From sequence record MH992123.1: a stretch of DNA of 64,000 nucleotides, one strand, 5' to 3'. Position numbers and translations under genes: made by a program. Positions 3,606-3,974 of this stretch are shown in pieces. The number at the start of each line of letters is the position of its first letter. Position 1 is the stretch's first letter. Below the pieces are notes generated by a model. The model worked only from the letters and a program-made list of their open reading frames with translations. It ran no database searches and was not told the origin of the DNA. This stretch comes from Escherichia phage OLB145.

Positions 3606-3974
3606 ATGTTAGGTGATAACACTAATGCTCTGTTTGGGGTGTCAGCCAGACCTATTATCATTGTTAATAAACATCATGGTAAGAGAGGTGAATATATTGG
3701 GCGTGGTTCTCCTCTGGGTAATCCATTCGTTATTGGTAAAGATGGAACCAGAGAAGAAGTAATTGCCAAATATAAAGTATGGCTACAAGAACAGATTGAT
3801 AAAGGTAATCCAGTTGTACTGGATGAATTAAATCGTCTTGGTAATAAAGCCATTGATGAAAAAGGATTAGCTTTACAGTGCTTCTGTTATCCAAAACCTT
3901 GTCATGGCGAGGTTATTAAAGAGAAGTTAGTAAAAGCTATGTATAACTACTTTGTGGAAAATCCTAATGGATAA
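3606..3974 (+). CDS. Hypothetical protein with GRGSPLGNPF motif (DUF4326-like, from memory)
   Basis: AAGGAG RBS 6 nt before ATG; the glycine-rich GNPF signature resembles a domain of unknown function recurrent in phages. Confidence 0.5.
   Translation: MLGDNTNALFGVSARPIIIVNKHHGKRGEYIGRGSPLGNPFVIGKDGTREEVIAKYKVWLQEQIDKGNPVVLDELNRLGNKAIDEKGLALQCFCYPKPCHGEVIKEKLVKAMYNYFVENPNG

Follow-up and report, generated by a model that had tools for sequence, protein, structure and literature searches.

The open reading frame at 3606..3974 of the window (the whole 64-kb stretch of DNA analysed here, which covers the left part of the genome of an N4-type coliphage) encodes the orthologue of coliphage N4 gp12 (YP_950490), and its sequence makes this protein a member of the DUF4326 family. 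We propose that gp12, together with gp14, might provide an additional step in the processing of ADP-ribose-derived adducts or signals, a reading to which the sequence comparisons give roughly an even chance; any particular substrate is considerably less probable. The observations behind this proposal are family membership, a predicted fold, conserved residues, domain fusions, gene linkage and the left-end position of the gene, and from them we infer an enzymatic activity, its substrate, a counter-defence role and the timing of expression. Neither the identity of the gene nor its family is new: the RefSeq entry for N4 gp12 reads 'DUF4326 domain-containing protein', the curators of the BASEL collection gave the same label to a gene of phage AlfredRasser, and a functional prediction has been published, Iyer et al. 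having proposed that DUF4326 proteins remove ribose-linked terminal phosphates. The finding is, in this sense, a correct annotation that had been recorded before. What we add is the degenerate paralogue gp9, the fusions that tie gp13 and gp14 to DUF4326, a rearranged version of the module on a distant contig (L099) and a fused Macro domain of the DarG type. These details sharpen the ADP-ribose hypothesis, which they render directly testable in N4 and T4.

The gp12 gene starts with ATG, stops with TAA and encodes 122 amino acids; a ribosome-binding site precedes it, and all other-frame open reading frames that overlap it are of 59 amino acids or fewer. The surrounding region (2500-6700) is 99.8% identical at the nucleotide level to Escherichia phage vB_EcoP_3HA13 and 98.5% identical to phage N4, in which the coordinates are shifted by one base. 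When gp12 was compared with five diverged orthologues, dN/dS was 0.05-0.10 at a dS of 0.8-1.6, values that point to strong purifying selection. The features of the region are collected in Table 1. A perfect hairpin with a 7-bp stem and a 3-nt loop (ATCCAGT-TGT-ACTGGAT) lies within the coding sequence, at 3808-3824 on the plus strand. We considered it as a promoter of the virion RNA polymerase (vRNAP) and rejected it, as the centre of its loop on the template strand is a pyrimidine and the flanks common to the other promoters are missing. About 0.5 hairpins of this kind are expected by chance per 9 kb, and this one is probably coincidental.

Table 1. Coordinates of gp12, of its neighbours and of the regulatory candidates. 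Positions refer to the window unless a locus is named.
Feature	Coordinates	Strand	Basis or remarks
vRNAP-type early promoter hairpin, probably P1	91..103	+	5-bp stem, 3-nt loop TTC
vRNAP-type early promoter hairpin, probably P2	558..574	+	7-bp stem, 3-nt loop TCC
vRNAP-type early promoter hairpin, probably P3	4547..4563	+	loop TCC; between gp14 and gp15
Terminator-like hairpin and T-run upstream of gp8	2523..2548	+	sequence
Strong terminator-like hairpins	494-513, 1080-1101, 2523-2548, 6681-6706, 7621-7639	+	hairpin and T-run
gp9 orthologue, diverged DUF4326 paralogue	2785..3120 (N4 start = 2806)	+	phrog_464, profile comparison
gp11 orthologue, travels with gp12	3283..3603	+	phrog_7827
gp12 ribosome-binding site AAGGAG	3594-3599	+	read from sequence; 6 nt 5' of ATG
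gp12 orthologue, stand-alone DUF4326 protein	3606..3974	+	ORF, Pfam PF14216, N4 orthology
Conserved block 1, G32-RGSPLGNP-F41	3699..3728	+	alignment; loop between strand 17-21 and helix 49-65 (predicted model)
Conserved block 2, C92-F-C94-Y-P96-K-P-C99-H100	3879..3905	+	alignment invariance; predicted secondary structure
gp13 orthologue, 61 aa, N-terminal CxC-x11-CxxC knuckle	3967..4152	+	ORF, fusion homology
gp14 orthologue, A1S_2505 family, macrodomain-like	4149..4529	+	NCBIfam match
Extra YAcAr-type SLOG genes of N4-genus relatives	L018:2818-3171, L022:3067-3420, L024:3039-3392, L026:3036-3389		L024: Pfam 45.5 bits
T4 nrdA.1	L163:5175-5498		between nrdA.2 and nrdA
JS10 nrdA.1	L095:3417-3809		between td and nrdA

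The first-pass annotation had picked out the GRGSPLGNPF motif in this open reading frame and had called the protein DUF4326-like. Motif and reading frame are real (residues 32-41), and the assignment is correct: gp12 matches the Pfam model (PF14216) with 80.4 bits, threefold the gathering cutoff of 25, over model positions 4-82 of 82 and at an E-value of 1.5e-22, far beyond chance. The match to the PHROG family phrog_464 has an E-value of 1.4e-39. A G-N-P motif is a hallmark of DUF4326. We aligned gp12 with 123 diverse single-domain relatives at 34-53% identity; in these 124 sequences R33, C92, C94, P96 and C99 are invariant, and Y30, G32, L37, G38, N39, P40, R49, Y56, L90 and H100 are conserved in at least 90%. 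Every conserved residue of the family is found in gp12, both in the YxGRxxxLGNPF block and in the C-terminal LxCxCxPxxCH block. Moreover, AlphaFold2 predicts a confident, conserved fold (pLDDT 94.5). Given this pLDDT and the 80.4-bit match, a profile match and a fold are both in hand, the two things whose joint absence was to have told against the assignment.

The family was described in the same annotation as widespread and uncharacterised, and this holds on both counts. When 1.84 billion cluster representatives were searched exhaustively, 6,014 clusters (50% identity) proved related at E <= 1e-3; by tblastn, 1,355 of the 50,697 phage genomes on deposit (about 2.7%) contain a relative, N4 and T4 included, and T4-like phages make up a large share of these records. 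DUF4326 occurs in giant viruses, in cellular genomes and in phages that infect many different hosts. In bacterial and archaeal genomes only 62 loci matched a strict search pattern. In the literature searched we found predictions only, and no experimentally assigned function for any DUF4326 member. Two database placements call for caution. A 69,347-bp record labelled 'MAG: archaeon' (JANQNF010000027.1, our locus L100) carries a gp12 orthologue that is 85% identical, with a gp14-like gene 169 bp downstream, and almost certainly represents the genome of an N4-like phage that was mis-binned with an archaeal assembly. Likewise, contamination or mis-assembly seems to be the explanation for P0285, a protein 88% identical to gp12 that NCBI places in Enterococcus faecium, on a 2.76-Mb contig.

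Searches of the PDB returned nothing significant for gp12, whether the model was submitted to Foldseek (best E = 1.0, RapZ being absent among the hits shown) or PDB chains were searched with the gp12 sequence and the gp12 family profile. From these null results it follows that the PDB copy searched holds no DUF4326 structure and that the link to a RapZ-type fold comes from one method, with a moderate score. A 2023 paper by Burroughs and Aravind on rhodanese-phosphatases is said to define a clade of RapZ-C, DUF488 and DUF4326. In our Pfam scan of the 124 aligned members, 79 also matched DUF488-N3a (best E = 1.5e-6) and 12 matched DUF488, other Pfam families being matched by at most two members each; the gp12 of the window itself has no DUF488-type match at E <= 0.05. 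In the gp12 model, as read by DSSP, C92 closes the second strand of the core (88-92), and the last helix, 101-118, starts at residue 101. The loop C92-x-C94-x-P96-x-x-C99-H100 would, in this model, take the position of the phosphate-binding loop of cysteine phosphatases and of the sulfate/malonate pocket of the RapZ C-terminal domain. The latter pocket (H190, T248, G249, H252 and R253) has been read as a probable phosphate-binding site (PMC5737377).

Alternatively, the three cysteines and the histidine of the loop could form a zinc site. [quoted passage not shown] We give this alternative a slim chance: the invariance of the five residues at such low identities exceeds what would be expected of a mere binding surface, the Pfam model matched by the relatives carries the name 'active' DUF488-N3 subclade, and the repeated fusion to enzymes within a single polypeptide resembles multi-step enzymatic processing. 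In the sister family DUF488, additionally, a glutamate replaces the second cysteine, a substitution that suits catalysis more than metal binding.

The neighbourhood of gp12 contains a second copy of the family. The gp9 product scores 21.9 bits against Pfam DUF4326, under the cutoff, and reaches E = 4.2e-20 against phrog_464; a profile built from a gp9-only alignment matched the DUF4326 profile with 99.0% probability in hhalign (E = 4.6e-18). This paralogue has lost R33, R49, C92, C94, C99 and H100 and has retained L37, N39, P40, F41 and Y56. R33, C92, C94 and C99 are missing in all six gp9 members compared and H100 in five of the six, and against the same relative dN is 0.22 for gp9 versus 0.04 for gp12, gp9 being the faster-evolving of the two. 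Its sequence suggests that gp9 may be a pseudoenzyme. The gene lies about 500 bp upstream of gp12, and its family is conserved in phages of the N4 genus and in two distant loci (L042 and L099). Between gp9 and gp12 lies gp11, a relative of which adjoins the DUF4326 gene in 15 of 94 loci and again in the rearranged L099; the idea that gp11 might be a degenerate SLOG domain was rejected at an hhalign probability of 2%. Some close relatives in the N4 genus have, between gp9 and gp11 and 560-800 bp ahead of gp12, an extra SLOG gene of the YAcAr type that is absent from the window and from N4. The left-end module seems to gain and lose genes linked to ADP-ribose or NAD.

Downstream of gp12 the reading frames overlap, by 8 nt between the gp12 stop and the gp13 start (ATGGATAA, 3967-3974) and by ATGA between the gp13 stop and the gp14 start (4149-4152), and both genes recur as fusions to DUF4326. 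Of 150 representatives, six (P0121, P0124, P0144, P0166, P0177 and P0251) are DUF4326 proteins that begin with a gp13-type knuckle, gp13 being 55% identical to P0124 over 38 aa (E = 6e-14) and 59% identical to P0121 over 29 aa. The order of the domains in these proteins is opposite to the order of the genes in N4. Fused forms were seen only among metagenomic representatives, and none in the IMG/VR loci. As for gp14, it matches the NCBIfam model 'A1S_2505 family phage non-structural protein' with 151.9 bits, and its family comprises at least 7,990 clusters, with genes of this type in 376 phage records that are mostly of schitovirus size and come from many host genera. One protein, P0135, joins DUF4326 to a gp14-like domain (50% identity over 101 aa, E = 2e-31), as do two genomic loci, L116 and L119. 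No Pfam domain was found in gp14 and none is recorded among the 120 gp14-family matches listed, and PDB searches with the gp14 sequence and the gp14 family profile returned no significant hit. The protein looks like a macrodomain of the DarG/TARG1 type; homology to the T4 macrodomain AdfM/Tk.4 found no support (hhalign 0.35%).

How these genes hold together is best seen on L099, a 5-kb metagenomic contig with a gp12 that is about 51% identical. At 2820-4874 it has, in this order, a gp11-like gene, a knuckle-DUF4326 fusion, a gp9-like gene and, further on, a gp14-like gene. That the gene set stays together despite the reordering argues for a functional module over mere inherited synteny.

Among the 24 closest multi-domain relatives of gp12, the partners of DUF4326 are SLOG domains (six YAcAr, one YpsA, one cpYpsA and one DprA-type), NADAR (four), Macro (one) and a 3'-5' exonuclease (one). 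The Macro domain matches M. tuberculosis DarG at E = 3.5e-42, and this similarity makes it unambiguously DarG-type by sequence. We also collected 92 viral loci around DUF4326 genes which, with the two N4 records, form 66 non-redundant groups at 70% identity. A gp14-like, SLOG or NADAR domain is fused to DUF4326 or lies within 3 kb of it in 21 of the 66 groups, always on the same strand. Pfam scans of the viral-locus representatives confirmed YAcAr (45.5 bits) and a NADAR-DUF4326 fusion (100.4 bits for NADAR); DprA-like and stand-alone NADAR-like clusters near DUF4326 were below the Pfam threshold. Further architectures combine DUF4326 with an SNF2 helicase or, at some distance, with a portal protein. 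The latter was seen in two loci (L049:1232-4249 and L059), in open reading frames of about 1,006-1,020 aa in which a portal protein is fused to a region of weak DprA/SLOG similarity and, at the C-terminus, to DUF4326. A portal fusion suggests that some phages carry DUF4326 inside their virions and deliver it along with their DNA.

The partner domains of the viral loci recur in 12 of 58 cellular loci. The nearest cellular neighbours are anti-restriction polyvalent proteins of the ArdC type (5), nSTAND1 (3), TIR (3), SSB (3) and DprA-like proteins (3), YpsA (2), and NADAR, GmrSD and AbiEii (1 each). The five ArdC-type neighbours match ArdC-N plus a zincin metallopeptidase, an anti-restriction polyvalent arrangement typical of mobile elements. 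In four contigs of Cyanobium or Aphanothece assemblies (L113, L115, L120 and L127) the DUF4326 gene adjoins open reading frames of about 1,060-1,110 aa, and these long picocyanobacterial frames are probably among the ArdC-N/zincin matches. The statement in the first-pass annotation that the domain recurs in phage and conflict-system contexts is broadly borne out by the SLOG, NADAR and Macro fusions and by the ArdC-type, TIR and STAND NTPase neighbours in cells, although no PADLOC model matches gp9, gp11, gp12, gp13 or gp14.

Other contexts could point to a role in DNA metabolism. T4 NrdA.1 and its JS10 counterpart match DUF4326 with 78.7 and 77 bits; in T-even phages the gene sits in the td/frd/nrdA/nrdB nucleotide-precursor cluster, and in T4 and JS10 the order is frd-td-nrdA.1-nrdA-nrdB. 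The name nrdA.1 in T4-like phages reflects only this position beside nrdA, and the label 'ribonucleotide reductase NrdA-like' on DUF4326 genes (phrog_24867 and several phage records) is a naming artefact. Taken with the large share of T4-like phages in the records, this placement would suit a gp12 that acts on nucleotides or nucleic-acid ends for phage replication, precursor supply or DNA modification, with no specific tie to ADP-ribose. So would the fusions to an SNF2 helicase and a 3'-5' exonuclease, the SSB and DprA-like neighbours in cellular loci, and the Lys/Arg-rich knuckle of gp13, which could bind nucleic acid; fusions of DUF4326 to components of replication and restriction-modification have also been reported in a study of jumbo phages (PMC7824862). 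We nonetheless consider such a role unlikely. ADP-ribose-linked partners outnumber DNA-metabolism partners by 14 to 1 among the closest multi-domain relatives, the single exception being the exonuclease; the genes linked to gp12 in the window are the macrodomain-like gene and the knuckle gene, the replication genes lying 17-26 kb further along; and the nrd adjacency seen in T-even phages may be a legacy of history with no functional meaning.

The placement of gp12 bears on when it might be expressed. The left-end region that contains it holds all three vRNAP promoters, and to this extent, by position, the early placement claimed for the gene stands. The hairpins were recognised by published features of vRNAP promoters (PMC4496689); those at 558-574 and 4547-4563 have in common AAG..GC-TCC-GC..CTT, followed downstream by TTGG. 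The former could be an upstream promoter able to transcribe gp12, and the gp8-gp14 block ends, on its 3' side, at the latter. The location of the hairpin at 4547-4563 between gp14 and gp15 implies that the RNAPII genes have a promoter of their own. Terminator-like hairpins with T-runs are more frequent at the left end than in shuffled sequence (11 found versus 4.2 expected), and they flank gp8-gp16 as a block. With the terminator-like hairpin ahead of gp8, transcription from P1 or P2 needs read-through to reach gp12. As judged from these sequence elements, gp12 could be expressed either early, by read-through, or in the middle phase.

From the early placement a role in host manipulation had been suggested. 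This is too vague, and the evidence favours counter-defence chemistry linked to ADP-ribose or NAD over generic host takeover. Small size and a position among other small left-end genes of unassigned function would fit an early factor that inhibits a host protein by binding to it, and N4 gp8 is reported to bind and inhibit the clamp loader. Inhibitors of this kind are usually lineage-restricted and fast-evolving. DUF4326, by contrast, counts more than 6,000 clusters across phages, giant viruses and cells, and gp12 combines invariant residues of a catalytic type with a very low dN/dS, so that we regard a generic takeover factor as very improbable.

We return to ADP-ribose processing as the preferred reading of gp12. 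[quoted passage not shown] The gp9-gp14 module might process ADP-ribose-derived molecules that arise from NAD+-dependent host immunity or possibly from phage enzymes. An 'N4-like ART' family has been named (PMC9503650); neither the RefSeq annotation of N4 nor a Pfam scan of 10 unnamed middle-region proteins revealed a phage-encoded ADP-ribosyltransferase in N4. Within the module, the putative DarG/TARG1-like macrodomain of gp14 would cut the ADP-ribosyl linkage and gp12 would handle the ribose-attached phosphate, for example in ADP-ribose-1''-phosphate or its cyclic form; alternatively, gp12 could act on DNA or RNA that bears a phosphoribosyl or terminal-phosphate remnant. The chemistry would use the Cys92 loop (C92, C94, C99 and H100) together with Arg33, and the Cys4 knuckle of gp13 perhaps guides gp12.

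Support for this scheme comes from the partner domains of the family, which have recently been shown to act in phage counter-defence. T4 AdfN, a stand-alone phage NADAR protein, was shown experimentally to neutralise DarTG by removing ADP-ribose from phage DNA (PMC11825919), and T4 AdfM/Tk.4, a stand-alone macrodomain, neutralises DarTG as well, for which removal of ADP-ribose from DNA has been proposed (bioRxiv 10.1101/2025.11.20.689424). The systems neutralised by these proteins are DarTG1 and DarTG2. Moreover, the SLOG-like phage protein ORF83 counters Avs, and its homologues in amoeba viruses carry a C-terminal DUF4326. The NADAR, macrodomain and SLOG classes of these counter-defence proteins are the partner domains of DUF4326, and an additional ADP-ribose-processing step is the most economical reading. 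Should gp12 turn out to supply an enzymatic or helper step that is missing from this chemistry, the account of how phages reverse ADP-ribose-based immunity would be complete; in N4, the role of DUF4326 can be tested in a compact module of four genes that is genetically tractable.

A bolder extension can be considered. The AdfN study inferred that a further factor is necessary for full anti-DarTG1 activity of AdfN in T-even phages (PMC11825919). DUF4326 could be an undescribed step in the reversal of nucleic-acid ADP-ribosylation, clearing, for example, a phosphoribosyl, ribose-phosphate or terminal-phosphate remnant beyond the reach of macrodomain and NADAR hydrolases; gp9-gp14 would then be an 'ADP-ribose repair' operon, and NrdA.1 the potentiating factor of AdfN. 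We hold this to be a long shot. The HIDEN-SEQ preprint has no data on nrdA.1 or on N4-like phages.

Finally, gp12 can be set against the systems it resembles. [quoted passage not shown] In RapZ, a two-domain adaptor with no known catalysis, this domain is the half that binds RNA and ligand, whereas gp12 stands alone, and the Cys-rich CxCxPxxCH loop of gp12 is not shared by RapZ, judged from the published pocket residues. The cysteine phosphatases (PTEN, dual-specificity phosphatases and PTPs) have a C-X5-R loop; the gp12 loop, C92-F-C-Y-P-K-P-C99-H100-G, is two residues longer, contains three cysteines and a histidine and has no arginine at +6, and its invariant arginine, R33, comes from a different loop. 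With 122 aa, gp12 is also much smaller than these enzymes. As the canonical CX5R is missing, gp12 is no conventional phosphatase and no member of the PTP, DUSP or PTEN families. Compared with the Pfam DUF4326 family and with T4 NrdA.1, nothing of substance is different; gp12 is a stand-alone protein, unlike the many relatives in which it is joined to a SLOG, NADAR, Macro, helicase or portal domain. A further comparison is with AdfN and AdfM, which are phage genes without cognate toxins. Their domain classes, NADAR and macrodomain, are those found fused to or beside DUF4326, while gp12 itself has neither fold. One and the same phage, T4, encodes AdfN, AdfM and a DUF4326 protein, NrdA.1.
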